From NCBI GenBank assembly GCA_003577105.1, contig QEUQ01000004.1:22156-86155 (forward strand): DNA of 64,000 nt, given 5' to 3'. This DNA is from Acidobacteriota bacterium (GTDB taxonomy: Bacteria; Actinomycetota; Acidimicrobiia; ATN3). Positions 6,107 through 41,914 of the stretch are shown in pieces; the first letter of the stretch is position 1, and each line of letters starts with the position of its first letter. The translations under genes and the position numbers were made by a program. Below the pieces are notes generated by a model. The model did no database searches. It was not told the origin of the DNA and saw nothing but the letters and a program-made list of their open reading frames with translations.

Positions 6107-6136
6107 TCAGCCGGCCAATAACCAACAGGCTGATCA

Positions 6137-6381: not shown

Positions 6382-6389
6382 GGCCGCGG

Positions 6390-6994: not shown

Positions 6995-7032
6995 TCTAAC
7001 TGTCTATGCACTAGACGGAAAAGGGAACACCT

Positions 7033-7676: not shown

Positions 7677-7745
7677 GCGAAAGCCGCCAGCGCCGATCCG
7701 ACAAGACAGTCTTGCCAATTCCTACCGCAGTAGTAAGATGGCGGC

Positions 7746-8060: not shown

Positions 8061-8062
8061 GC

Positions 8063-8464
8063 GTGAAGAGGGGGGATCACCGCGGTCTAACACTCGACGC
8101 AGGTGCTCTGATCGCGATCGACCGCAACGACCGCAACGACCGCAACATCATGGCGCTATTGAAGGATTTCGTTGAAAGAGGCGTAGTTCCCACAATTCCC
8201 GCTCCCGTCGTCGCCCAAGCGTGGCGATCCTCACGCCAGTCAAACCTCGCCCGCTTCATCAAGCTCTGCCGCGTCGAACCTACCGATCTAGAACTCGCTC
8301 GCCTTGCCGGGGAGCTGTGCCGATCGGCCGATGTAGCTGATGCGATCGACGCGATCGTCGTAGCAAGCGCCGCTCGCAGAGGTGATCTGGTGGCGACCTC
8401 CGATGCCCGGCACTTCAGGCGCATGGCAGCCCACGTTGAGGGCGTCGTGATACTCAACATCTGA
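8063..8464 (+). CDS. vapC: PIN-domain toxin VapC
   Basis: 'LTLDAGALIAIDR' PIN N-terminus with an acidic triad. Contains a 3x 'gaccgcaac' tandem repeat (DRNDRNDRN) at 8119-8145. Confidence 0.75.
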   Translation: MKRGDHRGLTLDAGALIAIDRNDRNDRNIMALLKDFVERGVVPTIPAPVVAQAWRSSRQSNLARFIKLCRVEPTDLELARLAGELCRSADVADAIDAIVVASAARRGDLVATSDARHFRRMAAHVEGVVILNI

Positions 8465-13092: not shown

Positions 13093-14419
13093 AGACCACA
13101 GCGTCATCCTCACTTCTGAATTAGCCAGCTTCCTCGATCTCCGGCCTCACCCCCTCTCGTCCGTCTTCACCCGCGTCGATCACGACGAAGCGCGTCTTTG
13201 CCAGCGACTCGATCGACATGTAGCGCCTTGTGATCAGCCACTCGTCGTTCTGCTCAGATAGCACGGAGCCGACTAGGCGGATGATCGATCCCCGGTTGGG
13301 GAAGATGCCGACTACGTCGGTCCGGCGACGGATCTCCTTGTTCAGCCGCTCCTGCGGGTTGTTCGACCAGATCTGTCGCCAGTGCTCCTTGGGGAAGGTT
13401 CCAAAGGCCAAGATCTCCTCCCTCGCGTCGGCGAGCATCTCGGCAGCGTCTTCGAAGTGGGGGGCGAGCTCTGCAACCACCCTCTCGAACTGGGCATAGA
13501 CAGATGCCCTGTCCGGTTGGGCGAAGATCGAGCGGACAAGAGTGGCCACCATGTCGGCTGAGGCCTTTGGGACCTTGGTCAACAAGTTCCTGAGGAAGTG
13601 GGCCCGGCACCTCTGCCACGCCGCACCTGGGAGCTCGGCAGCGATCGCGGATTTGAGCCCCTCATGGGCGTCGGAGACGACGAGCTTGACACCAGATAGC
13701 CCTCGGGCCTTGAGAGATCTGATGAAGCTGGGCCAACCCGCGCCGTCTTCGGTGGTGACGACGTCAAGGCCTAAGATCTCTCGACTCCCGTCGGCATTGA
13801 CACCGGTTGCGATGAGAGCACAGACATTGACGACACGCCCGCCCTCTCGACATCGCTGGGTGATCGCATCGATCCAGATGTAGGGGTAGCCGCCTTCGTC
13901 CAAGGGGCGGGACCGAAACGCCTCGACTCCCTCGTCGAGGCTTCTTGCGAGTGCGCTTACCTGGGACGCGGAGATCGCTTCGATGCCAAGGGTCTTGATC
14001 ACCTTCTCTACACGGCGTGTCGAGACGCCTTGGACGTAGGCCTCGGCGACAACGGCGATAAGCGCACGCTCTGCACGCCGTCTCGGGGTGACCAGCCAGT
14101 CGGGGAAGTACGAGCCGGTTCTGAGTTTGGGGATGGCAAGTTCCATCGTGCCGACCCGGGTGTCAAAGGTCCGCTCCCGATACCCGTTGCGGGAGTTCAC
14201 CCGGTCGGGAGTCCTCTCGCCGTAGTTGGCGTTGCAGAGCGCATCTGCCTCGGCAGACATGAGCTGGCCGGCGAACTCCTCGACCATCTCTTTGATGACA
14301 TCTCCGTCAGAATCTTCAAGCCGCTTGCGCAGCCAGGTCAGAACGTCCATGTTATGTGCGACCATCGCGTTACTCCTCAAGTGGTACTTAGTGGTCTTCT
14401 TGAGGATGACGCGGTGGTC
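13093..14419 (-). mobile_element. IS256-family insertion sequence (complete, ~1.33 kb) with terminal inverted repeats
   Basis: Left end 'gaccacagcgtcatcctca' (13093-) matches the reverse complement of the right end '...tgaggatgacgcggtggtc' (-14419) at 18 of 19 positions. Encloses the transposase CDS 13121-14380. Confidence 0.75.
13121..14380 (-). CDS. IS256-family transposase (mutator type)
   Basis: 419 aa with typical IS256-family N-terminus and a DDE region ('ISASQVS', 'PYIWIDA...', 'GLKSAIAAELPGAAWQRCRAHFLRN'). Confidence 0.9.
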   Translation of the reverse strand: MRSNAMVAHNMDVLTWLRKRLEDSDGDVIKEMVEEFAGQLMSAEADALCNANYGERTPDRVNSRNGYRERTFDTRVGTMELAIPKLRTGSYFPDWLVTPRRRAERALIAVVAEAYVQGVSTRRVEKVIKTLGIEAISASQVSALARSLDEGVEAFRSRPLDEGGYPYIWIDAITQRCREGGRVVNVCALIATGVNADGSREILGLDVVTTEDGAGWPSFIRSLKARGLSGVKLVVSDAHEGLKSAIAAELPGAAWQRCRAHFLRNLLTKVPKASADMVATLVRSIFAQPDRASVYAQFERVVAELAPHFEDAAEMLADAREEILAFGTFPKEHWRQIWSNNPQERLNKEIRRRTDVVGIFPNRGSIIRLVGSVLSEQNDEWLITRRYMSIESLAKTRFVVIDAGEDGREGVRPEIEEAG

Positions 14420-14717: not shown

Positions 14718-15137
14718 TCACTTTCGTCGCCAAGGATCGATTGTCTTGATGCCCGTATAGCGGAAATCCTTGACGTTCCGCGTTAACAGCGCCGACCCGT
14801 GAGCTCGGCAAATCGAGGCAACCTGGGCATCGAACCCGTCGATCGGAACTCCCCGGCGATCGCGCGCATCGACTATCTCCGGGTAACACAGCGCCGCAGT
14901 CTCATCGAAGGGCAAAACCTGATCCTCAAACGCACCGAAGACGTCAATAGCCGTGGCCTTCAAGATCTCTTTGCGGCGACCCTTCGGCAGTCGCTCGATT
15001 CCGTAGAGAATCTCTGCAACCGTGATTGAGGTTGTGCACAACTCCCCGCTAGGTCGAGCCAGCACCCAATCTCTCACTGCGGGGTCCGGCTCGGGCCTCA
15101 TGAGCTCAGACACTACGTTGGTATCGACAACGATCAT
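14718..15137 (-). CDS. vapC: PIN-domain toxin VapC (FitB-like)
   Basis: 'MIVVDTNVVSELMRP' PIN N-terminus and a C-terminal acidic residue ('LLTRNVKDF'). Confidence 0.85.
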   Translation of the reverse strand: MIVVDTNVVSELMRPEPDPAVRDWVLARPSGELCTTSITVAEILYGIERLPKGRRKEILKATAIDVFGAFEDQVLPFDETAALCYPEIVDARDRRGVPIDGFDAQVASICRAHGSALLTRNVKDFRYTGIKTIDPWRRK

Positions 15138-15379
15138 TCAGACAGATCTGGTGATCGCACCGTAGCCGACCGCTCGGGTAGGTCAAGTGTGACACCGCCT
15201 ACCTCACTGAAGCGCTCCACGAGTGATGCGAGCAGGCCCTTGGAATCACCCGGCTCACTGACCGCCTCAGCAAGGATGGCGCGAATCTCGGCTTCCATCG
15301 ATCGGCGATTCGCAGCTGCTCGGATGCGCAGTCGCTCTCTCACTTGGTCATCTAGATTTCGAATGCTCACAGCTGCCAT
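15134..15379 (-). CDS. vapB: VapB/FitA-type antitoxin (RHH)
   Basis: 'MAAVSIRNLDDQVRERLRIRAAANRRSMEAEIRAIL' is classic FitA/VapB; the internal Met at 15379 is the likely start; 4-bp overlap with vapC. Confidence 0.75.
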   Translation of the reverse strand: MAAVSIRNLDDQVRERLRIRAAANRRSMEAEIRAILAEAVSEPGDSKGLLASLVERFSEVGGVTLDLPERSATVRSPDLSE

Positions 15380-15776
15380 CGCCAATACCTCCTTAGTGCT
15401 AGCAATGCTAGCACTGGTAGGCAGGTGAGTCTCCCCAACCCAGACTGCATGGCCGACGACCCCCTTGCCGTTCGCGGTTACCTTGACGTTGTTTGCTGCC
15501 CGTGTAGTCTTCACCTAGAAAGTGCCCTTCTCGTCGAGGTTCCTGTGCGGCTTGCACCCGCCGTTTCCCCTGTCAGGAGGGCGTTTTCGCGGATTTACCT
15601 GCTCAGATCAGGGCGTTTTCGTGGAGAATCGTGGCTAATGCAACGAGTTCGGGACCCCGAGTACGCGGCTCTCGCGCCAATCTTCCTTTTCCTCCATGTC
15701 GCCGCCGTGGAGGTGCTTGTGGCACTGCCCGCCCACGAGTCATCGTCGAGGCGGCACGTGGCTGGGTGATGTCGGG

Positions 15777-16577: not shown

Positions 16578-17306
16578 ATGAGCCATCACTACGAGAACAT
16601 GCCTCGGTGCGCGTTCTTCATCGCTGGGCAAGATGGTCGCCCTGCGGGGACAGCTTTTGCTCTCGCCGCATCGGACACGAGTCCGATCTTTGTCGCCACG
16701 GCTCGACATGTTGTTCGAGGCTGTGCACCAAGTCCGAATGATTACACGGACCTCGTCATGAACTCGACGGCGGGTGAGGAATTTCGAATTCCTATTTGCC
16801 GCGCGGCGTGGATCGAGCACGAAACGGAGGATGTCGCTGTGACGTGTCTGGATCGTGACGATGTCGAGGACACAGCCAGCTTCACGTACTTCTACCTCGA
16901 CGACCGTATCGGGAAGAAATGGCAAGAGGACTTCCCTCTGCTCGGGTACCGGGTCATCACGGTTGGGCTATTTTCGGAGGCTCCCGGCAAGGGCGTCGTT
17001 CGACCGGTACTCCGATTCGGCGCCGTAGCGCGCCTCAACGACGAGCGCCATTTGCTGAGAAGCGCCGATGGGACCGACCAAGGCGATTTCGATTCGTACA
17101 TTGTCGACGTTACATCCACACCGGGATTCAGTGGCGCGCCGGTGTTCCTCGACTCGAACGTCCCATGCGTACTCGGCGTGCTACTGGGGCACTGGAATAT
17201 CAGCGCGCCCGACGGCAAGACTGGCTCACACCACTCTGGCCTCGCCCTCGTATCGCCCACTCGGTACGCAGCAGAGGTGATCGACCGATGGGAGCCATCT
17301 GGCTAA
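16578..17306 (+). CDS. Trypsin-like (S1/chymotrypsin-fold) serine peptidase domain protein
   Basis: 'FVATARHVV' (His region) and 'TPGFSGAPVF' (GDSGGP-like Ser motif). No signal peptide. Confidence 0.55.
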   Translation: MSHHYENMPRCAFFIAGQDGRPAGTAFALAASDTSPIFVATARHVVRGCAPSPNDYTDLVMNSTAGEEFRIPICRAAWIEHETEDVAVTCLDRDDVEDTASFTYFYLDDRIGKKWQEDFPLLGYRVITVGLFSEAPGKGVVRPVLRFGAVARLNDERHLLRSADGTDQGDFDSYIVDVTSTPGFSGAPVFLDSNVPCVLGVLLGHWNISAPDGKTGSHHSGLALVSPTRYAAEVIDRWEPSG

Positions 17307-17477: not shown

Positions 17478-17978
17478 GGGTCAAATAGCGATAATCGGCT
17501 GGGGGTCACTCGTCTGGGATCCTCGCGACTTGCCGATTGAATCCCCATGGCACGACGACGGCCCAGAGCTGCCAATCGAATTCGCGCGGATTTCGTCGGG
17601 GACCGGCTGACACTCGTGGTTTTGGAGGATGCGCCGCTCCAGCCCACCTACTGGGCCGCCAGTACCAAGGCGACCTTGGCGCAGGCCAGCGACGATCTCC
17701 GCGGACGGGAGGGCACAATCGACAGCTGCATTGAGAGCGTCGAGCGCGACGACGCCACATCTCAGCCAGACGAGACCGCTACCGAAGCCCGCGAGCGCGT
17801 CGGCGCTTGGCTACGCGAGGGCACCGAACTCACTGGTGCCACCTGGACTGGGTTGCGATCTAACTTTCGGGAAAAGACGCAGTGTCCGTTCAGTAGCAAC
17901 GCGGCGCTCGAGTACCTCCGGGGGCTGATCGACACTAAACGAGCTCATCGGATTTCAGCGGGGAGTCACGGTCGGTAG
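17478..17978 (+). pseudogene. Gamma-glutamylcyclotransferase (ChaC/GGCT)-like gene with apparent +1 frameshift near 17600
   Basis: Frame A (GTG 17478) encodes 'IAIIGWGSLVWDPRDL...' and stops at ~17610. The frame of ORF 17547 continues '...RLTLVVLEDAPLQPTYW...'. The two frames overlap across 'gaattcgcgcggatttcgtcgggg'. Confidence 0.3.
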
Positions 17979-19360
17979 CAGATCCCAATTGGGTCTTCCC
18001 GCATAGAGCAGCGCACGGATTCTGTAGTTCCTGAACCGTCTGAACCCAAGCGCGATGCGCTTGACTCTCTTGATCAAGTTGTTGATGGCCTCGGTCGGCC
18101 CGTTCGAGTATCGGACCTGATGCCAGGCGACGATCTGGTCGAACCAGCGGCGTAGCGTCCGGCCAAGTGACCGGACCTCGACCGGGAAGGAATCGTCTTG
18201 GAGGTCAGCTGCCAGCTCGGTAACGAAGGTGGCGGCAAGTTGGGGATCATCGATCTCGTAGATGGATCTGATGACCTCCTTGGCGTGCCAGGCCATCCGG
18301 ACATCGCCGTGGGGGTCGCCTGCTCGTAGCAGCCCCATCAACTTGGCCTCTCCTTTCTCGTCGAGACGTTCGTGCGCCTTGGTCAACAGACGCCTCGCCC
18401 GATATAGGGGGTCGGCCTTCTGCCCCCGGTGGCCAAGGGTCTCGTTCTGTACGCGTCGGCGACACGCATCTGGCTTGGTATTGGCCAGCTTCACCACATG
18501 AAACGGGTCCGCGATCTGGGTCGCGTGGGCGAGTGTGTCTTCGAAGACCTTCCGATACGGACCGGAAAGGTCGAGTACGCCAAAACAGATGCCGTCCCGC
18601 CACTCCTTGGGCTGTGCCTCGATCCACTCGCTCGGCCCCTTGGCGGAACGCCCCTCGACCACATCTAACAGTCGGGCCTCATCAGCGCCAACGCCCACGA
18701 TTGAGGTGGACCAGTTCTTGCTCCTCCACTTGCCCTTTCGGACAAACAGAGTCTCGTCGAGCCCGAGGGCTGCAACCTCACCGATCCGTCCGTCGTCATC
18801 ATCGACCAGAGCCGTCCCGTAGGCGAGAACCGCGTCGTTGACGGTGTGCCAATCGGCCCCGAGCTCGTCGGCGACCTCTTGGATACTCCGACCTAACTTG
18901 CCGACTTGGTAGGTCACCCAGCGTCCGGCCCGATCGGTCATCTTTCCCCGAGGCGGCGCGATCGTAGGTACCTGCTCGGTGAAGGAGGCCGTCGAGCATT
19001 CGCAGGCGTAGATGAGCCGGCGCTTGCGCCAGACGATCCTTGTAGGCCGGCCGAATGCCGGAAGGTCCACCAGCTCGACTTCGGGACGATCCTTCACCCA
19101 GGCGCCACCCGAGCACCTTGGGCATCTCGGCCGCTCGACGCGGGCCTCTATGTGAATGAGCAGCGGCTCGCCGTCGACATCATCGACGCCAAGGATGTTG
19201 ACGGCGGGAAGTCCGACAAGAATCTCGGCGATGCGCGTAGGGTTGGTCTCCACAGGGGCTCTCCCGGTTCAGGTGGATGAGACCTCCTGATTCTGGGAGC
19301 CCCTGTTACGCGCCTGGTGGACCTCAGACCCCGCTTATTTCCGAAGTGCCGGTAACTCCA
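17900..19360 (-). mobile_element. ISL3-family insertion sequence (approximate boundaries)
   Basis: Surrounds the transposase; terminal repeats were not resolved by eye. Confidence 0.5.
17955..19253 (-). CDS. ISL3-family transposase
   Basis: 432 aa with an N-terminal zinc-finger ('CPRCSGGAWVKDR') and an ISL3/IS204-type DDE domain. Confidence 0.9.
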   Translation of the reverse strand: METNPTRIAEILVGLPAVNILGVDDVDGEPLLIHIEARVERPRCPRCSGGAWVKDRPEVELVDLPAFGRPTRIVWRKRRLIYACECSTASFTEQVPTIAPPRGKMTDRAGRWVTYQVGKLGRSIQEVADELGADWHTVNDAVLAYGTALVDDDDGRIGEVAALGLDETLFVRKGKWRSKNWSTSIVGVGADEARLLDVVEGRSAKGPSEWIEAQPKEWRDGICFGVLDLSGPYRKVFEDTLAHATQIADPFHVVKLANTKPDACRRRVQNETLGHRGQKADPLYRARRLLTKAHERLDEKGEAKLMGLLRAGDPHGDVRMAWHAKEVIRSIYEIDDPQLAATFVTELAADLQDDSFPVEVRSLGRTLRRWFDQIVAWHQVRYSNGPTEAINNLIKRVKRIALGFRRFRNYRIRALLYAGRPNWDLLPTVTPR

Positions 19361-19394: not shown

Positions 19395-20504
19395 TCAACT
19401 GGCGTATGCGGGGGACCGTGGGAACTTGGCGGTGGCATCGTATCGATGTTGGAGATTCGCCAACAGTCTCAGTGCCGTATTTCCGCAGGAATACGGAGTC
19501 AGGTAAACGAAGATCTTGTCAGGAGTGATGTCGATCGTGATTCGTTCGCCAATGTGGAGATCGACGACTTGAGCAGTGAAGTAGTTCTCCGTAACCTCCT
19601 CGGGAACTCCCCAGAGGCGGAAAGGCTCACGACACGAGAACAGCCCCTCCAGCAAGCGGGGCATGTCGGTAATACGACGACCGAGTTCAATCGTTACGAT
19701 CTCGCCGTCGATTTCGAATCCAGTGTCGGGCGAACCCCGCCACTGGATTCGGTGTGCTGCTTCGATCGATAGCACGAGATCCGCGTACTGACGGATCGTG
19801 TCGGCCACGAACCCAACGTGCGTTTCAAACGATTCCCCGCGAGCAACGAATCGTCCATTGAACTGAACTATTTCATCAAGAGGGGCACCATCGGATTCTG
19901 CGTCGCTCACTTTGGTCGCTACTCCCGTGAGCGCGGCTGCGGTCTTGTATTCAGTCGCTCGTAGCACGCTGAGGAGATCGGTGGCTCCATCGCCCTCGAC
20001 CTGAATGCGCAACCGCCGGTCCTTGACGCCGCTTAGAGGCAGAAGGTCGGCACCCCTGAAATCGGCCTTGAACCAGGTCGCCTGCGACTGCGACTGAATC
20101 TGTTCAAGCAGGAACTGAGGGAACCAGCACGCGTCGACCTTGGAATCCCAAGCAAGGCGGCGTACTTCTCTGTGAGCGTTCCCTGACGCCGATGCCGTAT
20201 GGAGCAGCCAGAAGCGCGGGTCGAGCACATCGACGAAGAATGTGACTGCGTCGCTTTCCATCATCAGCAACGTGTTGTCCCCCGTGGCCTGGATACGCAT
20301 GTCATTTCGATGCGCGAGGTCCTCCGCGAATTCCGCCGCGCCGCTTGTGTCGCTCAAGCCATCAACTTCAAGGCCGTATGACTTGACGGGGCCGCGACCA
20401 CGAACCAGTTTTTGATCGGATGGCAGCCCGCGGCCGGCCAAGAATGGACTGAGCAGACTCGCCAATCCTTGACGATCGAGGCCGTTAGTAGGGCTCGTCT
20501 TCAC
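19395..20504 (-). CDS. Hypothetical protein (369 aa), last gene of the SbcCD-like cluster
   Basis: No recognisable domain; 4-bp overlap with the upstream ORF. Confidence 0.4.
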   Translation of the reverse strand: MKTSPTNGLDRQGLASLLSPFLAGRGLPSDQKLVRGRGPVKSYGLEVDGLSDTSGAAEFAEDLAHRNDMRIQATGDNTLLMMESDAVTFFVDVLDPRFWLLHTASASGNAHREVRRLAWDSKVDACWFPQFLLEQIQSQSQATWFKADFRGADLLPLSGVKDRRLRIQVEGDGATDLLSVLRATEYKTAAALTGVATKVSDAESDGAPLDEIVQFNGRFVARGESFETHVGFVADTIRQYADLVLSIEAAHRIQWRGSPDTGFEIDGEIVTIELGRRITDMPRLLEGLFSCREPFRLWGVPEEVTENYFTAQVVDLHIGERITIDITPDKIFVYLTPYSCGNTALRLLANLQHRYDATAKFPRSPAYAS

Positions 20505-21430
20505 TTTTCAGGGTCTCCTCTCTCGGCCTCGCCGGCGAACTCATCGAGGGAAAGCTGCCCTTCGATCTCGGGTCGACGTCGGCGTCGCCGCCCCGACGCC
20601 TGACGCAGCAGCCGCTGCCAACCCTGTGTCTGTCCTCTGGGGTCCGAATCAGCAGGATTCCTAAGTATCGTAACGGTCCCGCCTCTTTGATTCCTCACTC
20701 GCCCGGTCGTTCGCGAAACGGTGAAGTCACCGAAGAACGTCGTTTGGGCCGCCCGGTGGAGCACGTCCGTTACCCGGACAGCGATTCGCGAACGTGTCGT
20801 GTGGCTCAGCATCGTCAGAAAGGGAACGCGATCTACAAGTGCAATAACGGGGACGACTGACTCGCCACGGCTCATTGCGGCTACTACCTCCGCGACGAAG
20901 ATTCGCTCGATGTCGTCGTCCGAGCTTTCCGCGTCCACCTGGATCAGCGCGGGCGGGGGCCCTGGGACCGGGACCTCAAACGGCTTCAATTCGGAGCCCG
21001 ACGGGACCCTCAACCTGCACTGCCGCCCCCCGACAGCCAGCGTCGCGCAGCTTAGGCCAGATTGCTGTATCCCCTTCAGAATGCGCTCTTCGTTTTCTTC
21101 GAGGAAGGCGTACACGACCTCGACCTTCGTTTTCGACGCCTTCGGGGGGTTGATCGTGATTATGCGACGAAGGTCCTTCAGCGTCATCGCTCCGTACTTC
21201 CGCGCCTGATCGACATCGACGTTTGCGCCGCTCTTGGCCTCGGTAACGATTGCGAGTTTCGAGTCATCGGAAAGCGCAACCCCATCGGCCATGACGGTTG
21301 AAATCGCCGTCGAGATCGGCACTTCAAACCACGCCGGGCGCAGTCCTTGACTACCGAGGGGTCTCGGCCAGCCCGCGTCACCGCGCATCAACGCTATCCA
21401 AGCGTTGATAGGGATGAGCCGTCGATCCAT
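20501..21430 (-). CDS. Hypothetical protein (309 aa)
   Basis: No recognisable domain; co-oriented and translationally coupled to 19395-20504. Confidence 0.4.
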   Translation of the reverse strand: MDRRLIPINAWIALMRGDAGWPRPLGSQGLRPAWFEVPISTAISTVMADGVALSDDSKLAIVTEAKSGANVDVDQARKYGAMTLKDLRRIITINPPKASKTKVEVVYAFLEENEERILKGIQQSGLSCATLAVGGRQCRLRVPSGSELKPFEVPVPGPPPALIQVDAESSDDDIERIFVAEVVAAMSRGESVVPVIALVDRVPFLTMLSHTTRSRIAVRVTDVLHRAAQTTFFGDFTVSRTTGRVRNQRGGTVTILRNPADSDPRGQTQGWQRLLRQASGRRRRRRPEIEGQLSLDEFAGEAERGDPEK

Positions 21431-21716
21431 CAGCGTCCTCCCTGGGTTTCCGCGGATACGAGCGAACGGGCCAGAGCATTCTGCTTCAGCGGCGTGACAG
21501 CGTGAGGGAATTCGTCGCCGGCGTCGTAGCGACGATCTCCTTGTCGAAGACAGGCCGCGTCAAGTCCACGGCCGATTTCAAGGCGGCGCTCGAGATCCCA
21601 GCCGAACGGCAGGCCCTCGTGGCCGCGACCCGCATACGACCGGCTCAAGATCGTGGCCCGCGCAAGCGAATTCCGCGACTCGTGCCGAGAGCCGGTTTCA
21701 ATGCCATCACCGGTCG

Positions 21717-24398
21717 TCATGAGGATGCGAGCTCCTCGGATGGTCGCGCGCCTTGAGGAAGCTTGACCGTGACGGCGTCGCCGATGAATCGGTAGCGATC
21801 CGGGTAGCAGGTGAGCAGGATCACTTGGCACTGCTGGCGCGCGGCGATCATGCGAATCACTGCCCCAAGTGCCTCGAGCCGTTCAGGATCGCTGTAGCCC
21901 AGCGCATCATCGAGCACAACGGGTACGCCTGAGTCCGGGTCGACAAGAGCAGCCGTTGCCAGGCGCGCCAAGATCGAGAGCTGTTCGCGAGCCCCAACGC
22001 TCAGCTGCTCGAAGGGGACCGTCACGCCGTCAAGCGCACGCCGGCTGATCGCGAGGTCTTCACTCAGCTCGACCGCGAAGCTGGCACCGAAAACGATCCG
22101 GCCCAGCTCTTCGATCTTCTCCCGCAGCGGTGCCCTGTACCGCTGAAACGCTTCAGTGCGGCAAGCTGCCATCGTCTCGTAGAGCTTCGCGGCAGCTTGC
22201 GCGCGACGCCACAGCGATTCCCAAGCTCGGCGCTGATGCTCCAGCTGAGACCTGGCTTCGTCCAGTTGCTCCGCTATGCCATCAGCGCCCAGAGTCTCAA
22301 GCTTCACGCGTGCGTCGCGAAGGTCGTGCGCGGTGCTGTCCCGGTCCTCCCTGCATCTGTCGACTGCGGCGGAAGCGTTTTCAGCTCTGGCCCGGACTTT
22401 CTCGGGCTCAAGAGCCTCGTACTCACGACGGCCGTCCTCTAGGCGAGCCGCCTTCTCTTGGACATCGCGCTCCTTAGAGCGGAGCTTCTCTTCAAGCTCC
22501 TCATCTGAATGCTGCTGCCGGGCTCCTTCCAGCTCTTCCCGGACCTGTGCCAGTCGGCCCCGCAGCTGCTCGTGATCGGCCTGTTGCTTGGCAAGTTGCT
22601 GATTGAGCGTTTCGAGTTGGGACTGTGCAGCATCCCGCTCACTTTCGGCTTCAGCGCGCTCCTCATCGGCCTCCTCTCGGGCCGTTTCAGCAGCGGCCAA
22701 GAGCGCGCTGGCGTCGTCGAGGTCAGCAGCCATCGATAAGTCAGATTGGCGCGTTTCCGGATGCGCATCCACAAATGCTCTGAGGTTGCTCACCTTCTGC
22801 TTAAGTTCTTCTCGACTCAAGTCTCGAAGAGCATCTCGGATGCGCTCCTCAGCATGCTTGATAACGCCGGCTGCCTCGCGTCGCTCGTCGTTGACTCGCT
22901 TGGCGTCAGCAAGGTCGGTTACCCCGAGGTCGGCCAGGAGCCCAGCGATGTTCGCCTGGACATCGTCGAGTTCCCGGGATGCAATCTCCGGGGAAGATCC
23001 GGGCCGAACCGTGATTGTGACAATCTCGGGGATCTCGAACTTGGCCTCGGCGGTAACTCTCCTCTCAATAGGGTGGCCATCCCGGAGCTGCTCTGGCTCA
23101 CCGTCAATCACGAGCGAGGAGTTAGTGTGAGGCTCTAGGCGAACACTCGGGCTCCCAGCCTCAAGGGTTGCGCGCTTCACAATCGCCTCGTGCTCAAGTT
23201 GCCGCAGACGCTCCAGCGCGTCGTCATCCACGAGACTCCGACTCACGACTTCTTGCGCGACGGCCACCTCCTGCTCGGCCGCTTCTGCTCGAGCCAGGCG
23301 CTCGCCCATCATTTCGAGGTCGAGCTTGCCTCGAAGGAAGTCATGGTCGGTCCTCCGAATCTGCTCGATTCGGCGGCAGTCTTCCAGGACAGAATTCGCC
23401 TGCTTGCCGCGCTCGATCGCCCTGTCAACACGAACTCTGGCGTTCGCCTGATCGCTCGATACCGCCGCGCGGCCACTCGCGAGGCCGGTTTCTTGCTCGA
23501 TGTACTGCTTTTCGTCGTCAGCGAGCTTTCTACGCCGCTCCACCGCGTCGCTGACGGGAGCTAATTCGGCCTTGGCGCTGTTGAGTTCAGACTCAAGCTG
23601 TTCAATCTCTGACGCCTTCGCAATCACGTTATCGAGCTTGGCACCGAGATCCGCGGCCTCAGCCTCCGCCTCCGCAAGGCGGATTTCGAGTCGGGCGCGA
23701 TCTCTTGCAAGGCTTTCCGCTGTTGATGTGAGCTCTTCAAGGTCTCTGAGGGCCGTTTCTCGCTCACCCTCGCGACCTTCGAGTTCCCTCACTGCGTCTT
23801 CTTGCTCCTGTATTTCCTTCTTGCGCTTCCCGGTACCCGTGAAGTACTTGCCAAACTCGGTCTCTGCCTTCGCGAAAAGTGTGTCTTCCGCGGCACTCAC
23901 GGGTGTGCTGCCGGCAGCGCCATCGAGTGCAGCCTGAAGCGCATGCGACTCACCCAGCGTCGGCTGAGAGATCTCTGTGCCCTGCTCGAATTGAAGAGCT
24001 GCCCAAAGACCCTCGTCCAACGTCTCCGCGATGATCTCGCTCATCCGTTCGTGCGCTTCTCGTCCCGCGATCGATTCAGTTCGCGGCTTGGTGATCTGCA
24101 GTGTCGTCTCGCCACGCCGGCCTGGGCCAAATGTCTTGCTGTAGGTGAGTTCGTAGTCCCCCGTCTGCAACGTCAACTCAACCCGGGGGTCAGCATCCCG
24201 ATGAACCGGCCTGCTCGCCTTGACATCCTTCTTGGTTGAGTCTGAAGGCGCAGTAAAGAGAAGGTTGATGGCTTCTATGAGCGACGACTTACCGACCTCA
24301 TTCGGACCTTCGACGATTGTGATCCCATCAGTACTGAAATCAACATCGCACTCATCAACCCCACGGAAGTTACGGATGCCGACACGGTGAATCCTCAC
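21717..24398 (-). CDS. SbcC/Rad50-like AAA ATPase with long coiled coil (actinobacterial Rv1278-like)
   Basis: N-terminal 'IRNFRGVDECDVDFSTDGITIVEGPNEVGKSSLIEAI' P-loop, ~500 aa of Ala/Glu/Arg-rich coiled coil, C-terminal 'QVILLTCYPDRY' D-loop region; 4-bp overlap with the upstream SbcD-like gene. Confidence 0.8.
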   Translation of the reverse strand: MRIHRVGIRNFRGVDECDVDFSTDGITIVEGPNEVGKSSLIEAINLLFTAPSDSTKKDVKASRPVHRDADPRVELTLQTGDYELTYSKTFGPGRRGETTLQITKPRTESIAGREAHERMSEIIAETLDEGLWAALQFEQGTEISQPTLGESHALQAALDGAAGSTPVSAAEDTLFAKAETEFGKYFTGTGKRKKEIQEQEDAVRELEGREGERETALRDLEELTSTAESLARDRARLEIRLAEAEAEAADLGAKLDNVIAKASEIEQLESELNSAKAELAPVSDAVERRRKLADDEKQYIEQETGLASGRAAVSSDQANARVRVDRAIERGKQANSVLEDCRRIEQIRRTDHDFLRGKLDLEMMGERLARAEAAEQEVAVAQEVVSRSLVDDDALERLRQLEHEAIVKRATLEAGSPSVRLEPHTNSSLVIDGEPEQLRDGHPIERRVTAEAKFEIPEIVTITVRPGSSPEIASRELDDVQANIAGLLADLGVTDLADAKRVNDERREAAGVIKHAEERIRDALRDLSREELKQKVSNLRAFVDAHPETRQSDLSMAADLDDASALLAAAETAREEADEERAEAESERDAAQSQLETLNQQLAKQQADHEQLRGRLAQVREELEGARQQHSDEELEEKLRSKERDVQEKAARLEDGRREYEALEPEKVRARAENASAAVDRCREDRDSTAHDLRDARVKLETLGADGIAEQLDEARSQLEHQRRAWESLWRRAQAAAKLYETMAACRTEAFQRYRAPLREKIEELGRIVFGASFAVELSEDLAISRRALDGVTVPFEQLSVGAREQLSILARLATAALVDPDSGVPVVLDDALGYSDPERLEALGAVIRMIAARQQCQVILLTCYPDRYRFIGDAVTVKLPQGARPSEELASS

Positions 24399-25558
24399 GT
24401 GCCGCTCCTAGCCAACCGGTAAAGCAATCCCAGTGCGTCTCGAGCCGCCCGCGACGGATCGTCAAGATCGGTGCCTCCCGTCGATGCCTCGGCCACAAGA
24501 CGATCGAGTGCATCTTTGGCGAAGCCGGAAAGTCCAAGGTCGCTGAAGTCGTCGTCGTCAGGGCGAACCGCGAGATCACTCTCGCGGTCCCAGTCTTCGA
24601 CAGCAGCGAAAAGGTCGCTCGCTCTGTCGAGAATCTCACCCAGCTCGGCTTCCTCGCGAATGCTGACCGTCCCCCGAAATGCCAGCTTTAAGATCTTTCG
24701 ATCCTTCTGTGAGAAACTCTCGAGCCAATCGTCGACAACCCTCAGGTCATCAGCCCCGTCTATCGGAAACTCCCGGCGGATGAAACTCCAGGTTCCAGTG
24801 TGGCGCTTCTCGACCCGGCACTTCGAGCCGTCGAGCTCGACGACAAGGATGTTGCCGGAATCGTCTTCGACGTAATCGGTGGGCTCCGGGGTCCCCGAGT
24901 ACCAAATGCGGCCGGTCTCCCCTGCATCGAGCGTCGAGTGCCTGTCGCCGAGGGCAACGTAGTCGAGTAGTCCGTCGCGCACATTCTGCTCGGCCGATGC
25001 GAGGGAGATAAGCGCTGGATTCGCTTCATCTGGTACCAGCGAATCGAGCTGCCCGTGCGCGACGCCAATCCGGATGCCCGACTTGCCGCCGCCTTCGATA
25101 CCCGCTTTCGCGATTGCATCCGCGAGGAGGTCTGTCAGCGGCTTACGAGTAAGCAACGGAGCTGCGATTACCTGGACTCCCGGTGACACCTCTACAAGTC
25201 CCGGCTCGTCGAGGACAACGACATTGTCCGGCTTGCGTTCCCCGAACTCGGGCGTTTGGTATATCGACGATGGATCAAGCGCGTCGTGGTTGCCCGGGAG
25301 CAAGTAGAAGGTGACTTCGCACTCGGAGATCGCTTCGAGAGTGGCATACACCGTGCGACGGTGCAGGAAGTTGGAGTCGAAGACATCGCCTGCAACGACT
25401 ACAAAATCACAGGATTCCTCAGCCGCAACGCGCCCAATCGCCCGGATGGCTTCGAGTCGCGCGTCATTGAACCGAGCTTGCGCATCGGCATCGAGGAAGT
25501 GCCGCGTCATCCCGATCTGCCAGTCGGATGTGTGGATGAATCGAGTGCCGTCAGACAT
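24395..25558 (-). CDS. SbcD/Mre11-like metallophosphoesterase (Rv1277-like)
   Basis: 'FIHTSDWQIG', 'VVVAGDVFD', 'LLPGNHD' calcineurin-like phosphoesterase motifs; internal Met at 25558 taken as start. Confidence 0.8.
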   Translation of the reverse strand: MSDGTRFIHTSDWQIGMTRHFLDADAQARFNDARLEAIRAIGRVAAEESCDFVVVAGDVFDSNFLHRRTVYATLEAISECEVTFYLLPGNHDALDPSSIYQTPEFGERKPDNVVVLDEPGLVEVSPGVQVIAAPLLTRKPLTDLLADAIAKAGIEGGGKSGIRIGVAHGQLDSLVPDEANPALISLASAEQNVRDGLLDYVALGDRHSTLDAGETGRIWYSGTPEPTDYVEDDSGNILVVELDGSKCRVEKRHTGTWSFIRREFPIDGADDLRVVDDWLESFSQKDRKILKLAFRGTVSIREEAELGEILDRASDLFAAVEDWDRESDLAVRPDDDDFSDLGLSGFAKDALDRLVAEASTGGTDLDDPSRAARDALGLLYRLARSGT

Positions 25559-25713
25559 GCGAGGTCTCACTCGGGTCTGGGTTCGACCGGTATTGAGAGA
25601 CAATGCACGTCAACTCCAAATTTGTTCCGGTTCCTGCCCGTGGAGAGATGCAGCACGGGACGGGCCACAGATGGCCATCTCGGGGGCACGAGGCACAACT
25701 GAGAACATCGTTC

Positions 25714-28011
25714 TCAGCCCCACTTGTTCTTCACAAAAGAGACGAGATCCTTTCCCTCAAGAACTCGCGTTGAGTTGTTCACGCGCACGTAGAACACCTG
25801 CTCGCCCTTGGATGTTTTCGCGTATACCGCTTCGGGAGAGGGTGAAACGGTGATGGTGCAAACCTGCTCCTCCTCGATGCCCTCAATGCGGATTCGAGCG
25901 CGAGCCGACGTCGCCGCGCCGAGCGCGGAGGCGAGAACGCTGCTCAGCGCGTTCACATACCGATCCGCGTCGATGCCTTTGTGATCGAGATCTGCTTGAA
26001 TCCCGAGTACCTGATGATCGTCCGAAATCCCTATGGCCAAGGTACCCCCGTCAGCGTTGAAGAACGCCGCTACTGTCTTGATCACGCTCTCTGTCACAAC
26101 CTTTTCGGGCACGTCCGGCTTGTAGCTGAAGAACGCCGACGACTTGAACTCGACAGTCCCATCTTCATCGGCATCGATGAGATCCTTGAGAGTCCACCTT
26201 GGCTCAGTAGGCGGTGACGCAGGAGGTGCGTCTTGCTCGGTCTCATCGCTGGGAAAGTCCCCGTTCCGAAGCTTCTCGAACGCTATCCGCACAACGTTGG
26301 CAATCAGTTGCCGCCGCTCCTTGAGGAACTCGGTGTATTCCATGTTCTCCCACCCTTCAGGCAATGCGTGCCAGAAGCGGGCTTTCTGTTGTTCTTCGCC
26401 GTTGAGTTCACCAAACAGGGCAGGGAAGTACGCGCTAGGGGGCTGGTCACCAATCGAAGCGTTATCGGGCCATTCGACGAAGGCGTAGTTGGCGATCTGA
26501 TTCCGCATACGACTATCGAATCCAAGGGTTCCCAAGTATTTCGCAGGAAAGAGGTGGTGACGTTCGATCGCAGAACGAGGCGCGTGGGTCGATGGGTTCA
26601 GCAGCTCGGCGGTCGTGAGCCGCGAGAACAGAGGAGTAGCACTGAGGAGGACGAGGCTTGCGTGATACGCGAACAGCGTCGGGCTGTAGGCAGCAGAGGT
26701 CTCTAATCCAGACGGCAGCTGGATCTCCCAATAGTCGTTGGTAAGCGCCGTTTCGATGATCTGGTCGAGGGCCAAAACGAAGCCGTCTGAGCCGGTCACG
26801 CCTTCGAGCTGGCGGAGATCTGCCTCCACGCGCGTCTCGAAGCTTCCCGTATACCGTCCGGTTATCGCGGTCATGAAGAACCAGCGAGCGATCACTTCCC
26901 GAAGTAGCCTCCGGTCGACGCCATAGGTCCGCAGGCCTATCAGGTAAAAGAGGTAGCCAAACAACAGGTTGTTCTCCGAGCTGATCATCGAGTGGCTGCA
27001 GTATCCGGCTCGGCGGATCCCCTTCAAGAACTCGTGCCAGTTCGTCAGGTCTAGCACCGCCGATTGTGCGTCGCGCAGTGCGTCAAACTGTCGCTCCCGG
27101 ACCTCAGCAGAGACTTCGCCAGTCGCTAGATCCTTCCCGCGCAAGACCTGATAGACCGACCTGAGTCGGCCACGCCGGAACGCCAGGCCTGCCGCGACTC
27201 GCAGCAGTTGGTCTGGCGAGGGCGCGATAAAAGGGTTCGCGGGAGACGCCACACCCGAAGGCGCGGTCTTCGCGGCACGCGCGAACTCCTCCAGGGCCTT
27301 GCGCCCCTTATCCCACCAAACAGACATCAGGGTAAGAATGAAATCTGCTTGATCAAGTCGGACACCCTCGCTGTTGATACGCACGAAAATCTCGGCGACC
27401 TGCTCTTCGTCGATGTCGCTGCCAAGTTCTACGATCTTGAATGGATAATTCCTCATGTCGAAGAGGCGGTCGATGGCTGTCCAGTGGCGGTCCTCCTCAT
27501 CCTCGTCCAGCTCGCCTTTGGCGGCCTCCAGACGATCGATGAATGACTGCACCTTCTTCTTCATTCCTCCACCGGCCCAAAGGGTGGAGATGTCGGAAAT
27601 GAACTCAGGATCCTTCTCAATTGCGGCGTCAGCCACTTCGAACTGGGCATCGCGGGGCCTAAAAGCGATACGAATTCGGCTCTCGGTAAAGTCATCGCGG
27701 ACAACGGGCTGACCCGTCATGACGGCATAGAGCGAGGTAAGGCGCTGTTGGCCATCTACGATCATGAGGCGTGGCGCGGCCTCCTTCGTGTCGGTACCAA
27801 TACTCCTGGCGCCGGCCTCGGCCCCCGTTGACCAGAGCAACAAGAACCCGACAGGAAATCCCCGATACATCGAGTCGAAAAGGTCCCGGACCTTTGCGGC
27901 CTTCCAGACGAACGGGCGCTGGATGTCTGGCAGCGCGATCTCGCCTCGCCGAATCTCCTCTAATAGAGTCGACAGGTTATATGTCGTGTCTTTGAAGACT
28001 GTTATGGCCAC
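25714..28011 (-). CDS. GmrSD-like type IV restriction enzyme (DUF262 + DUF1524/HNH-like) fused to a C-terminal AlbA_2 / Schlafen-like domain
   Basis: N-terminal DUF262 'DIQRPFVWK...DGQQRLTSL', central DUF1524 'IERHHLFPAKYL', C-terminal 'EFKSS...NADGGTLAIGISDDHQVLGI' (AlbA_2-like). Confidence 0.7.
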   Translation of the reverse strand: MAITVFKDTTYNLSTLLEEIRRGEIALPDIQRPFVWKAAKVRDLFDSMYRGFPVGFLLLWSTGAEAGARSIGTDTKEAAPRLMIVDGQQRLTSLYAVMTGQPVVRDDFTESRIRIAFRPRDAQFEVADAAIEKDPEFISDISTLWAGGGMKKKVQSFIDRLEAAKGELDEDEEDRHWTAIDRLFDMRNYPFKIVELGSDIDEEQVAEIFVRINSEGVRLDQADFILTLMSVWWDKGRKALEEFARAAKTAPSGVASPANPFIAPSPDQLLRVAAGLAFRRGRLRSVYQVLRGKDLATGEVSAEVRERQFDALRDAQSAVLDLTNWHEFLKGIRRAGYCSHSMISSENNLLFGYLFYLIGLRTYGVDRRLLREVIARWFFMTAITGRYTGSFETRVEADLRQLEGVTGSDGFVLALDQIIETALTNDYWEIQLPSGLETSAAYSPTLFAYHASLVLLSATPLFSRLTTAELLNPSTHAPRSAIERHHLFPAKYLGTLGFDSRMRNQIANYAFVEWPDNASIGDQPPSAYFPALFGELNGEEQQKARFWHALPEGWENMEYTEFLKERRQLIANVVRIAFEKLRNGDFPSDETEQDAPPASPPTEPRWTLKDLIDADEDGTVEFKSSAFFSYKPDVPEKVVTESVIKTVAAFFNADGGTLAIGISDDHQVLGIQADLDHKGIDADRYVNALSSVLASALGAATSARARIRIEGIEEEQVCTITVSPSPEAVYAKTSKGEQVFYVRVNNSTRVLEGKDLVSFVKNKWG

Positions 28012-28153: not shown

Positions 28154-31100
28154 TCATTTCATGGATTCCATAAGGGTGAGGATGGTGTCTTTGGTGCGGT
28201 AGGTGCCGTAGGTGGCTTCGTCGTGGCGGCGGACGATGGGGAAGGTGTCGAGGATGTACGCCGCGTCGTCGGCGTTGATGCCGTAGAGGTGGAAGAAGGC
28301 GGCGTCGAGTTCGCAGCGGAGTTGGAAGCGGCGCTCGGGGTCCCACGCGAAAGGCGGGCCGTCGTAGCCGAGGTCGCGAGCGAATGGTTCGAGACCCCAC
28401 GACGTGTAGACGAGTTCTAGGACGCGCGAAGAAATCCAGTCGGCGAGCGTTTCGGCTGGCGCCCATGGCGCAGACGCGTCGTACGTCGAGGGCGAGAAGA
28501 CCGGCAGCTGCTTGAATGTGAAGAACTTCATGTGTGTGCCACCGACCTTCTGGCGGGCCACAAAGTCGTATACGAAAGCGTCAATGTTTCCGAGAAGACT
28601 GGCGTACACAACAGGAAGCTGCCCGCTCGACGGTAATAGCAGGAGGAAATTGTCACCGACGCCAACCAGTGGGATGAGGGCCGATATCGCGGTGCGCTCG
28701 TCGGTGCTGCGGGCAATATCGCGCCAGCCGAGGAGCCAGGGGCGGTCCCATTTGCCGGCAAGGCGGGCCGAGACATCCGCAGCGGGGACCCAGTAGCGGG
28801 GCAGCGGCTGGTAGTTGGGGTCGGCAAGCACGGAATCGGAAATGTCTGGGAGCTGGGTGCTCTTGGAGCCCGCTGGGAGCATCGAGTAGTCGCCGAAGCG
28901 GTGGTTGAACTGGTGGATCATCTTGGCCTCGTACAAGGGCACGTACTGCTCGTCGGCGCGCTGGAAGATGTTGCCTTTCAGTGTCCAGCCGTCGGCTTCG
29001 AGCCCCTCGCGAGTGCGGAAGAGCCCCGAGTCTGAAGTCATGTTGAACAAACCTTGTTTCAGCTGTGCGCCCCAGGGATTGCCTTCTTCCCCCTTGGACT
29101 CATCGATCAGTACGGGCACACGCTCGTAAATTGCCTTGGTGATCTCGGCGTCCCGCCGCGTGCGGAAGATCGGACACGTCTTGGTATTCGGATTGATCAG
29201 TGCGATGTCGGCGGGGCTGAGCGTGATTTGCTTCTCGGGGCGCGCAACATCTTCGGTCGAGTGTGCAAAGAAGACAAAGTCGGCTGCTGCGGCGGGAGAC
29301 TCGGGACCGGTAAGAGCGAGCAAGCAGAACTTGACTCTGCTGTCCACCGCTGGAAACACACGATCGCGGTTCTCGAAGTCCAGGAGCGCGACAAGCGAGC
29401 TCTGCTCGACGAGATCTTGAAAGAAGAACTTGGTCGTGTCATCCGTCGCGATCCCCGACGGCAGCACAGCGCCAACTCGTCCGGCATCCGACGCCAATGT
29501 GCGCATCCCCTCGGCAAAAACCGCGTAGCTGTTGATCTTGCCGGTTCCGCTCAGCGGGTACCTGCCGGACGATCGAACGAAATGGCTTGTCGCATGGCTG
29601 TTGTGAACAGCTCGCTTGAATTCCGCGTGCAGTTCGGGCTGTTCGGATTCGAGCTTCGCAATAAGCTTCTTGCGCTCTGCTCCTGAGGCGGACGCGATTT
29701 CGGGGTCGCGTGAGGCGAAGAACTCCTGTTCAGCAGTAACGAGCTGCTCCCATGGCGGGTTTCCGACGACGACATCAAAGCCGCCGCGCCATCCGGTTAC
29801 CTCGTCTGAGTCGATCGCGAGGTTGTCTTTGGGCGAGAAGACATCGGGGAAAGCCAGATGGAAGTGGAAGAACTGGTTTTCGCGAGCGAGCCGGTCGATC
29901 TCATCCAGAGTCCGGCGGGGCACCGGGGCATCGCCTGTCACGAGGTTGGTCAAGACCTCTTGGGTGACAGGCTCTGGGCCGTCTGTGACCGCGGGCCAGA
30001 AGAAGGCCGCACACCAGGCATCTGCAACCAGCTTTGCCTTCTCGAAGTCATCGGAAGCGACTAGGCTCCGATAACGCTGCTCCTTCTCTCCCACTTGGTA
30101 TATGGAGTCCTGCGGCGCATCCTCTAGTTCGAGGGCGCCGGCGCTGATTGCTGAGTAGCGCGATTCGAGGCCGCGCTGGGGTGCGAGGCTGAGCTGCCCG
30201 CCCTCAGACGCCAACTTGTTCCGCTTCTTATACGACGCCGCGATCTTCTTGTCGTCGCCTTCGATAGGCGCAAAGGCCTCGTTGGGAATCCCGCGCTTGA
30301 TGAGTGCCGGGGTGGCCCCTACGAGCGAATCGCCGACCAAGATCTTGTGGTCGAGGAAGGCCAGGGGCTTGCCGGGCTCCATCGCCTCCATCCATAGCGA
30401 GACTCTGCATAGCTCAGCTGCCATCTCGTTCTTGTCGACGCCATAGATGCAGCGGGCGATGACATCTCTCAGCGCGTGGCGCACCGCTTCGGGGGGCGGC
30501 TCTTCTTCGCCGGTGCGCACTTGAGCTACGCGGCGAGCAATGCGACGAGCGGCGGCAACGAGGAAGTGGCCGCTGCCCGTAGCCGGGTCGAGCACTTTGA
30601 CATCTAGTAGGGCGGCTTCGGGGTCGTCGCTTTGCTGCGCTCGATCCAAGATTGGGTCAAGTGCTCGATCTAGGAGTTCATCGATTAGCGATGACGGCGT
30701 GTAGTAGCTCCCCGTAGTCTTGCGCTCATTGCCACTTGCGACCTTGAGTTCAAAGGTAGCCGCATCGAGACTGAGCACGGGGTGAAGCTCTAGGAGCGAC
30801 TCGTAAACCGAGCCAAGCTCTTCTGCACCTAGGTTCTTGTAGTCGACCCTACGGCGCTTACCCGCTGCATCGACTAGAGAGAGCGACCTGATCGCGTCGA
30901 GAAGGCCGAGTTCGGGGCATCCACGTTCGTCACCAAGCCACCCGGTGACGAGGCGCAGAATCTCGAATAGGTCGGAGTGCGCCGTGCCAACCCTCCGCTC
31001 AGCGAGTTCGCGCAGGCGCGCAGTTGAGTAGTTGTCTATGTAGAGATTGCGGGCTTCGCCGGATGCTTCCGGGCCGAAGAGAAGGTTCCGGTCATCGGCG

Positions 31101-32008: not shown

Positions 32009-32010
32009 CG

Positions 32011-41911: not shown

Positions 41912-41914
41912 GCG

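Follow-up and report, generated by a model that had tools for sequence, protein, structure and literature searches.

An SbcCD-like gene pair and a candidate MJECL32-MJECL33 nuclease cassette as probably independent modules of one defence island

The 6.2-kb stretch at positions 19395-25603 of a 64-kb window of contig QEUQ01000004.1 (here, 'the window' means that whole stretch of DNA, which is also the extent to which the organism's own genome was viewed) carries four minus-strand open reading frames (ORFs), all of which, together with their neighbours, are annotated in the public record as hypothetical (locus tags DCC49_02180-02205). The stretch probably combines two modules, each of two genes, that function independently and were joined by insertion within a defence island. 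One is an SbcD/SbcC-like nuclease-ATPase pair; the other consists of members of the Pfam families MJECL32 (PF27326) and MJECL33 (PF25924), which would make up a nuclease-based immunity or addiction cassette. A preliminary description of this DNA, made from its letters, had given the ORF coordinates, the two 4-bp overlaps, the 286-bp spacer and the GmrSD-like and ISL3 flanks, all of which stand. The features of the stretch itself are these:

24395-25558, minus strand: SbcD/Mre11-like metallophosphoesterase, 387 aa from ATG, predicted nuclease subunit of module 1
21717-24398, minus strand: SbcC/Rad50-like coiled-coil ABC ATPase, 893 aa, overlapping the SbcD-like gene by 4 bp, module 1
21431-21716, minus strand: apparent decayed, frameshifted 3' fragment of a DrmMI-like methyltransferase gene, similarity core 21543-21625
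20501-21430, minus strand: MJECL32-like protein (PF27326), 309 aa
19395-20504, minus strand: MJECL33-like protein (PF25924), 369 aa, overlapping the MJECL32-like gene by 4 bp

The first TTG of the SbcD-like frame lies at 25603, and the alignment of homologues favours the ATG at 25558. The gap of 286 bp separates the SbcC-like gene from the 309-aa ORF.

That the two pairs are separate entities is best seen from the distribution of the MJECL genes. The synteny set comprised 50 species-level genome loci encoding an MJECL33 homologue, from Acidimicrobiia and other Actinomycetota, Chloroflexota, Myxococcota and Gemmatimonadota. MJECL32 adjoins MJECL33 in approximately 43 of these, being directly upstream in 40 (often with a 4-bp overlap) and downstream in three (Gemmatimonadota); six or seven loci, a part of them truncated, yielded no MJECL32. 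Homologues of SbcC or SbcD were present within 10 kb at none of the 50. The pair also occurs, without SbcCD and in the order 33 then 32, on plasmids of Methanocaldococcus jannaschii, Halobacterium, Lysinibacillus, Bacillus cereus and Metabacillus, the plasmid partner of MJECL33 being homologous to MJECL32 by profile comparison. Overall, it spans the Archaea and at least six bacterial phyla, and is found on plasmids, in elements resembling integrative and conjugative elements (ICEs) and in defence islands. The MJECL pair is, in short, self-contained, horizontally mobile and rare; the MJECL33 family amounts to 784 clusters among 1.84 billion representatives, nearly all of them 350-400 aa in length. 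The preliminary description had left it undecided whether the two unknown genes are accessory effectors of the SMC (structural maintenance of chromosomes)-like ATPase or an independent two-gene system. The former idea is contradicted by the lack of SbcC or SbcD at all 50 loci, by the plasmids that carry the pair alone and by a 67%-identical relative whose pair comes straight after a methyltransferase gene, with no SbcCD, whereas the latter is borne out by the adjacency of the two genes, in the absence of SbcCD, at about 43 loci. The synteny check also failed to find the four genes as a conserved core-genome block.

Neighbourhoods of the pair were surveyed with a crude gene caller based on GC content at third codon positions (GC3), taking the three nearest genes on each side and raw counts. 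No constant third neighbour emerged from the 50 loci; the commonest neighbours are restriction-modification genes, helicase families, integrases, transposases and PIN toxins, mixed with metabolic genes. At some loci, the association with known defence genes is close; it resembles an operon at L020, L022, L051, L055 and L056, though not for DrmA (L045) or Hachiman (pBFR_2). MJECL32 begins 2 bp after an hsdM-hsdS-hsdR operon at L020, and at L022 a DrmMI-like methyltransferase gene, the pair and a gene for a DruE-like helicase of 1942 aa follow one another at distances of 3 and 252 bp. The pair comes after HmaA at L051, and at L045 DrmA lies 124 bp from it on the opposite strand. On the B. cereus plasmid pBFR_2, Hachiman (hamAB) is approximately 1 kb downstream of the pair, and in M. 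jannaschii the pair is surrounded by genes for an OLD-type nuclease, an EVE domain protein and VapBC. Integrases, transposases, relaxase/TraG, TIR and ubiquitin-like (Bil-type) genes are likewise found near it.

Two further arrangements concern possible additional partners. In the Acidimicrobiia chromosomes L055 (4050-13225) and L056, HmaA and HmaB flank an MJECL33-like gene, and a profile search of the 2.3 kb upstream revealed no MJECL32 homologue, so that this gene may have another partner or a decayed MJECL32. On Bacillaceae megaplasmids (L078, B. cereus pBFR_2, 4887-8069; L079, Metabacillus pB218, 4823-7970), a gene of the PemK/MazF family encoding about 240 aa is situated some 200 bp upstream of MJECL33-MJECL32; this long PemK/MazF-family gene may be a clade-specific third component.

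Both MJECL genes are clearly coding, so that the non-coding statistics named in the preliminary description as a possible refutation do not apply: homologue searches returned 61 clusters for the 369-aa protein and 18 for the 309-aa protein (E values down to 1e-175), and AlphaFold2 models reached pLDDT (predicted local distance difference test) values of 94 and 84. The statement that they have no recognisable domains is true of the local Pfam-A, NCBIfam and PADLOC, but precomputed Pfam data assign PF27326 and PF25924. The PF25924 model is not in the local Pfam-A copy, and the assignments are precomputed matches on identical or near-identical proteins. For MJECL33, the match to PF25924 is unmarked (E ≤ 1e-5) on a 99.7%-identical protein (L005) and on all 61 homologues, and tblastn connects the window protein with an ORF of the M. 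jannaschii plasmid pDSM2661_1 (E 2e-27). For MJECL32, the match to PF27326 is flagged 'weak' and stands on P0062, a 99.7%-identical protein that is the representative of its 90% cluster. By hhalign, the MJECL32 family alignment matches the M. jannaschii partner with a probability of 85% (E 6e-6, with the ExK aligned), the Lysinibacillus one with 96.6% and the Gemmatimonadota one with 97.6%. Sequence searches of the PDB matched neither MJECL protein, MJECL33 had no match among INPHARED phages, its alignment had none in IMG/VR, and tblastn of plasmids with MJECL32 gave none. A 655-aa metagenomic protein (P0227) was considered as an MJECL32-MJECL33 fusion and set aside, as its 40-residue linker, rich in Arg, Gly and Ala, resembles the 4-bp overlap read out of frame; it is probably a frameshift artefact.

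Structure prediction, recommended in the preliminary description, gave a PD-(D/E)xK domain plus winged helix for the 309-aa protein and TBP/KA1-like domains for the 369-aa protein. The N-terminus of MJECL32 has the PD-(D/E)xK core (alpha-beta-beta-beta-alpha-beta, with D in beta2 and (D/E)xK in beta3), its putative nuclease residues being D49, E64-x-K66, Q75 and Y79. The core is followed by an invariant PPP linker, the winged helix, a DPRGxTQxxQ motif, a basic tail modelled with low confidence and a C-terminal QLSLDEF. MJECL33 is composed of three alpha/beta TBP/KA1-like domains. Within the MJECL32 tail, 47 of 49 homologues retain Q292. An exact QLSLF or QxxLF occurs at five species-level loci, in three metagenomic homologues and in the Lysinibacillus plasmid protein ('DQLSLFDYENY*'); QLDLL, QLSLL or QLDLW is found in 11, and the pattern Qx[ST][LIF][DE][DE][LF] in 25 of 42. 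The window protein and those of B. cereus and Metabacillus have QLSLDEF, QLTIEEF or QLTIDEF. The consensus for binding the bacterial sliding clamp is QL[S/D]LF or QxxLF, and NucS, a structural neighbour of MJECL32, uses a clamp-type C-terminal peptide.

How the two modules came to be neighbours is recorded in the spacer between them. The island upstream of the four genes, and the element downstream, contain the following:

25714-28011, minus strand: GmrSD_N (DUF262) plus Schlafen AlbA_2 protein, 765 aa (Pfam; PADLOC HEC-05 match, 2e-32)
28154-40304, minus strand: DISARM-like trio of a 1781-aa DEAD/MZB helicase, a 983-aa SNF2 protein and a 1284-aa Eco57I/DrmMI-like methyltransferase (PADLOC, NCBIfam)
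approximately 17943-19349, minus strand: ISL3-family insertion sequence, transposase 17955-19253 (DDE_Tnp_ISL3 match, 2e-50)

The sole significant match of the spacer anywhere in the 64 kb is to the 3' end of the trio's methyltransferase gene (28289-28370, same strand; 83 nt, 76% identity, E 1e-10), and it stands at z = 16.6 against dinucleotide shuffles. At the protein level, GHEGLPFGWDLERRLEIGRGLDAACL matches a C-terminal stretch of the methyltransferase, and an upstream piece matches in another frame. At L006, too, the 3' end of the methyltransferase gene can be aligned with the spacer, which is collinear with the methyltransferase-MJECL32 junction there. At L006-L009, the same helicase-SNF2-methyltransferase trio (74-77% identical) is directly followed by MJECL32-MJECL33 (58-67% identical), and neither GmrSD nor SbcCD is present. 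Because it matches the 3' ends of both the resident and the L006 methyltransferase genes, the spacer is, on these alignments, apparently a decayed 3' fragment of a methyltransferase gene at an old methyltransferase-MJECL32 junction. With the spacer read as such a fossil, the ancestral order would have been helicase-SNF2-methyltransferase-MJECL32-MJECL33, the block of GmrSD-like and SbcCD genes having been inserted later into the methyltransferase-MJECL32 junction. The GmrSD_N and AlbA_2 gene is context and lies outside both pairs.

The spacer has the stated length of 286 bp but is not empty, as it holds a 96-aa ORF lying over the methyltransferase relic (21430-21720, minus strand; annotated in the public record as DCC49_02190 and also by the Logan gene caller). 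This ORF was considered as a fifth gene and rejected, as the equivalent sequence at L016 is broken by a 17-nt indel and stops early. It overlaps the stop and start codons of its two neighbours, and it appears to be a read-through of the methyltransferase pseudogene fragment and not a gene.

One relative is represented by two contigs from one sample (L010 and L016), which share an 11-nt overlap across which the SbcC frame continues. The order SbcD-SbcC-spacer-MJECL32-MJECL33 is reproduced in this relative at approximately 70-76% identity, and therefore predates the split from it. Three independent assemblies (L010, L011 and L012) break at the identical base, 30 nt before the SbcC stop, with the 11-nt overlap with the next contig.

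There is nothing unusual about the SbcCD-like half, which belongs to a large, uncharacterised, hook-less family of Mre11/Rad50-like proteins. Its naming in the preliminary description is upheld, the nearest Pfam, NCBIfam and PDB matches being SbcD/Mre11 for one protein and SbcC/Rad50 for the other. The SbcD-like protein matches Metallophos at 3.4e-10 and TIGR00619 (sbcd) at 57.2 bits, under the cut-off of 77.65, its alignment to SbcD being limited to the N-terminal ~90 residues (E 1e-5). It belongs to a very large family of more than 5588 homologues, mostly of about 376 aa and about 50% identical. Its motifs are DWQ (I), GD (II), GNHD (III), H183 (IV) and GDRH (V); since the substitutions DWQ and GDRH are both invariant in 23 family members, they appear to be a family trait rather than a sign of decay. 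The SbcC-like protein matches AAA_15, AAA_23 and SMC_N, as well as Rad50 N- and C-terminal head models, in its ATPase head only, and scores 39-49 bits against NCBIfam Rad50 models whose cut-offs are 700-1087. It has a Walker A motif (GPNEVGKS), a signature motif (LSVGAREQL) and a Walker B motif (VVLDDALG, thus D-D); a CxxC zinc hook is absent throughout this protein and four homologues.

The earlier suggestion that this pair serves housekeeping repair appears to hold elsewhere, since relatives with 64%, 54% and 53% SbcD identity have the pair alone amid core genes, but here the pair is embedded in a defence island, as had also been noted. The three core contexts are prfB-tkt-[pair]-RPE65-ftsE-ftsX-M23-smpB, ABC transporter/MaoC ... 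alanine dehydrogenase/FtsK, and glmS/uvrD. The family is also found on 40 plasmids, annotated there as 'DNA repair exonuclease' and 'AAA family ATPase'. In the three closest relatives (76% identity), the pair is always in an island, and each has a different cassette directly upstream of SbcD. This slot, which is occupied by GmrSD_N-SLFN in the window, by a 393-aa protein plus an AAA_13 ATPase at L010 and by SLFN_AlbA_2 plus HEPN_RiboL-PSP at L073, is a hypervariable defence slot with gene swapping. As regards the actinobacterial Rv1277/Rv1278 pair, to which resemblance had been claimed, a Mycobacteriales (Tsukamurella) pair of 44% identity is annotated 'exonuclease SbcCD subunit D' and 'AAA family ATPase', and the literature naming Rv1277/Rv1278 merely lists these genes.

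By analogy with SbcCD, the two translationally coupled proteins of module 1 most likely act on DNA ends or hairpins: the ATP-driven coiled-coil head would bind DNA ends or hairpins, and the phosphoesterase subunit would cut what is bound. In this lineage, module 1 seems to travel as island cargo.

For the MJECL pair, the immunity or addiction cassette that we favour would operate as follows. MJECL32, with its D...ExK nuclease core and winged-helix DNA-binding domain, would be the DNA-cutting effector. MJECL33, a putatively non-enzymatic TBP/KA1-like partner, may be a sensor or regulator that binds MJECL32 and gates its activity upon encountering foreign nucleic acid or protein. The conserved Q-L-[SD]-L-type peptide, carried on a tail that is basic and disordered, may hold the nuclease at the sliding clamp or may instead dock it to MJECL33. 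Such a cassette fits the tight coupling of the genes, their persistence as a pair despite the swapped order, their mobile spread across domains and their neighbours. It is reasonable to regard the pair as a possible new immunity module, the evidence for a defence role being its neighbourhood; both families are catalogued in Pfam, with function undescribed, and absent from PADLOC v2.

Several points weigh against this interpretation. At most of the 50 loci, the nearest three genes on each side, by raw counts, are not recognisable as defence genes and many are metabolic. PADLOC-DB v2.0.0, whose use had been advised, yielded zero matches for either MJECL protein at E ≤ 0.01, and literature searches returned nothing for the family names or for the accessions PF27326 and PF25924. 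The fold of MJECL33 is generic and gives no specific function. The window tail, QLSLDEF, departs from the clamp consensus at position 5, which is acidic, and archaeal homologues have a similar QxxLD; docking of the tail to MJECL33 therefore seems an equally good reading of the peptide. With respect to the joining of the modules, the fossil is short (~83-140 nt), and blastn did not detect it in L016, where similarity is confined to the two ends of the spacer; the fossil claim is confined to the window. GC content and GC3 likewise fail to separate the modules from their flanks.

A bolder version of the immunity hypothesis, which we put forward tentatively and consider unlikely, holds that MJECL32/33 is an innate immune module in which a restriction-type nuclease, tethered via Q-L-S-L-(F) to the beta-clamp in bacteria and to PCNA in archaea, would reach replicating foreign DNA and be released or licensed by MJECL33, working alone or as the missing nuclease arm of Hma or DrmC-less DISARM.

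The dependence on such larger systems can also be taken as the whole explanation, with MJECL32/33 as an exchangeable nuclease module of helicase-methyltransferase systems (DISARM-like, Hma, Druantia-like and type I restriction-modification), which it would provide with the DNA cleavage that they are missing, for example replacing the phospholipase D (PLD)-type nuclease DrmC, instead of working by itself. The pair does stand 2-3 bp after hsdR (L020) and after the DrmMI-like methyltransferase gene (L022, with the DruE-like helicase beyond), directly after the methyltransferase gene in L006-L009 and, ancestrally, in the window. It has HmaA before it in L051, and L055 and L056 carry an MJECL33-like gene flanked by HmaA and HmaB; no PLD-type gene was seen among the window trio. 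However, such a system is missing from the nearest genes at most loci and for every plasmid copy, type I HsdR has its own nuclease, and the three Hma cases, all in related Acidimicrobiia associated with sponges, may reflect one event. Given also that unrelated systems co-locate as a rule in defence islands, we judge a plug-in role of this kind improbable.

To about the same low degree, we entertain a toxin-antitoxin or addiction module that stabilizes mobile elements, with MJECL32 as the toxin, MJECL33 as its inhibitor and no role in phage defence. A tightly coupled, overlapping gene pair that is patchy across Archaea and Bacteria and sits on megaplasmids and ICE-like elements beside VapBC, PIN and MazF-like genes is what such a module might look like, but the two proteins greatly exceed the usual size of type II toxin-antitoxin partners, clades differ in gene order, an autoregulatory antitoxin domain is not obvious, and the nuclease has its own winged helix and a conserved recruitment-type peptide. 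The proposal also overlaps the immunity or addiction cassette that we favour, many abortive-infection systems being formally toxin-antitoxin-like.

Less probable still is that everything here is DNA repair, with SbcCD performing housekeeping end-processing and MJECL32/33 being a clamp-associated, NucS- or Hjc-like nuclease in a variable region. The clamp-type tail peptides and the core contexts of more distant SbcCD-like pairs are compatible with this, but the MJECL33 family is very rare and is dispersed over plasmids and distant phyla, with no instance in a conserved core setting, and SbcCD in this island amounts to an indel when compared with L006 and follows a defence slot whose genes are swapped. 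A single four-gene Lamassu- or Wadjet-like SMC defence system, in which SbcC senses DNA and MJECL32/33 are effector or kleisin-like subunits, is highly improbable: the kleisin-like winged helix of MJECL32 could have pointed to an SMC partner, an idea that was dropped as no SMC-like gene accompanies the pair elsewhere. The region is neither a Lamassu- or Wadjet-type system nor a conserved housekeeping block.

Were the MJECL pair an immunity module, it would be a two-gene system common to Archaea and Bacteria that is in no current defence catalogue. Its placement at the 3' end of, or inside, Hma, DISARM-like and Druantia-like operons bears on how such systems destroy DNA, and the clamp-type tail hints at a specific means of guiding an immune nuclease to invaders that are replicating. 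The apparent methyltransferase fossil offers a clean, datable case of cassette insertion into a defence island, and illustrates that small 'hypothetical' ORFs in island gaps can be relics. The value of the SbcCD-like half is chiefly as a reminder that a large hook-less Mre11/Rad50-like family remains uncharacterised.

The surroundings of the stretch deserve description in their own right. The window from about 4 to 50 kb holds mostly mobile-element and defence genes, including toxin-antitoxin pairs, transposases and an M78-HTH (helix-turn-helix) protein with DUF4411. The ISL3 element begins 45 nt downstream of the MJECL33 stop codon and is bounded by 21-nt imperfect terminal inverted repeats at 17943-17963 and 19329-19349. 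An Rfam scan of 17-29 kb matched nothing, and a promoter and terminator scan gave no signal beyond shuffle expectation. Within the DISARM-like trio, the 983-aa SNF2 protein has a full-length PADLOC 'DpdE' match of 838 bits and an NCBIfam DrmD score of 332 against a cut-off of 610, the 1781-aa helicase (DEAD, Helicase_C and MZB/DUF1998) gives its top scores to DruE models, and the methylase is DrmMI-like; PADLOC and NCBIfam scans showed no PLD-type DrmC among these genes. Diverging from the large helicase gene, at 40358-42400 on the plus strand, are genes for a 517-aa protein with HTH and M78 (ImmA/IrrE) peptidase domains and then a 161-aa DUF4411 protein, which could be a regulator and effector or a toxin-antitoxin-like pair at the island edge. 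Downstream of ISL3 are a Mutator-family transposase (13121-14380), a FitA-like ribbon-helix-helix plus PIN pair (14718-15514) and a Trypsin_2 protease (16578-17306), and a Gp49-like toxin is encoded at 5633-6106. For SbcD, the MJECL pair and the DISARM-like genes, the nearest relatives are metagenome-assembled genomes of Acidimicrobiia and other Actinomycetota, despite the NCBI label 'Acidobacteria bacterium', and an actinobacterial-type DUF5719 protein is encoded at 42473-44380; the NCBI taxonomic label may be wrong.

Compared with known systems, module 1 shares with Escherichia coli SbcCD and Mre11-Rad50 the combination of a phosphoesterase with a coiled-coil ABC ATPase, the sbcD-then-sbcC order of overlapping genes, motifs II-IV, Walker A and a signature-like motif. 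It differs in motif I (DWQ as opposed to DxH), motif V (GDRH as opposed to GHxH) and Walker B (D-D as opposed to D-E), in lacking the CxxC zinc hook and in scoring under every curated cut-off. Lamassu and Wadjet resemble the region in that an SMC/Rad50-like ATPase adjoins a nuclease-fold protein and, for Wadjet, in that the winged helix of MJECL32 is similar to kleisin C-terminal domains, including that of JetB. By PADLOC, however, the LmuB model matches residues 1-88 only of the SbcC-like protein (the generic ATPase head), LmuA and LmuC have no match, the JetA, JetB, JetC and JetD set that defines Wadjet is absent (no match to JetA, JetC or JetD), and the nuclease pair is not SMC-linked elsewhere.

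As for the MJECL pair, the M. jannaschii pDSM2661_1 ORFs, namesakes of PF27326 and PF25924, are likewise two adjacent, overlapping genes of families for neither of which a function has been described; in M. jannaschii, Halobacterium, Bacillaceae and Gemmatimonadota the order is 33 then 32, unlike the 32 then 33 of the window, and the M. jannaschii MJECL32 partner is longer (438 aa as opposed to 309 aa). NucS/EndoMS, a clamp-tethered PD-(D/E)xK endonuclease, has no sequence homology to MJECL32, whose nuclease domain is N-terminal and followed by the winged helix, and which has an obligate partner gene, a mobile, patchy distribution and a clamp motif that is putative. Structurally, the nuclease core of MJECL32 is matched best by the type II/IIS enzymes SdaI, FokI and BsmI, which likewise combine a winged helix with PD-(D/E)xK; unlike these, the MJECL cassette has no cognate methyltransferase and always has a second, non-enzymatic subunit, and relative to SdaI the domain order of MJECL32 is opposite. 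Finally, although the MJECL proteins match no component model of DISARM, Hma or Druantia-type systems, and most copies of the pair are without such a neighbour, the pair is found repeatedly at the end of, or inside, operons of these types.

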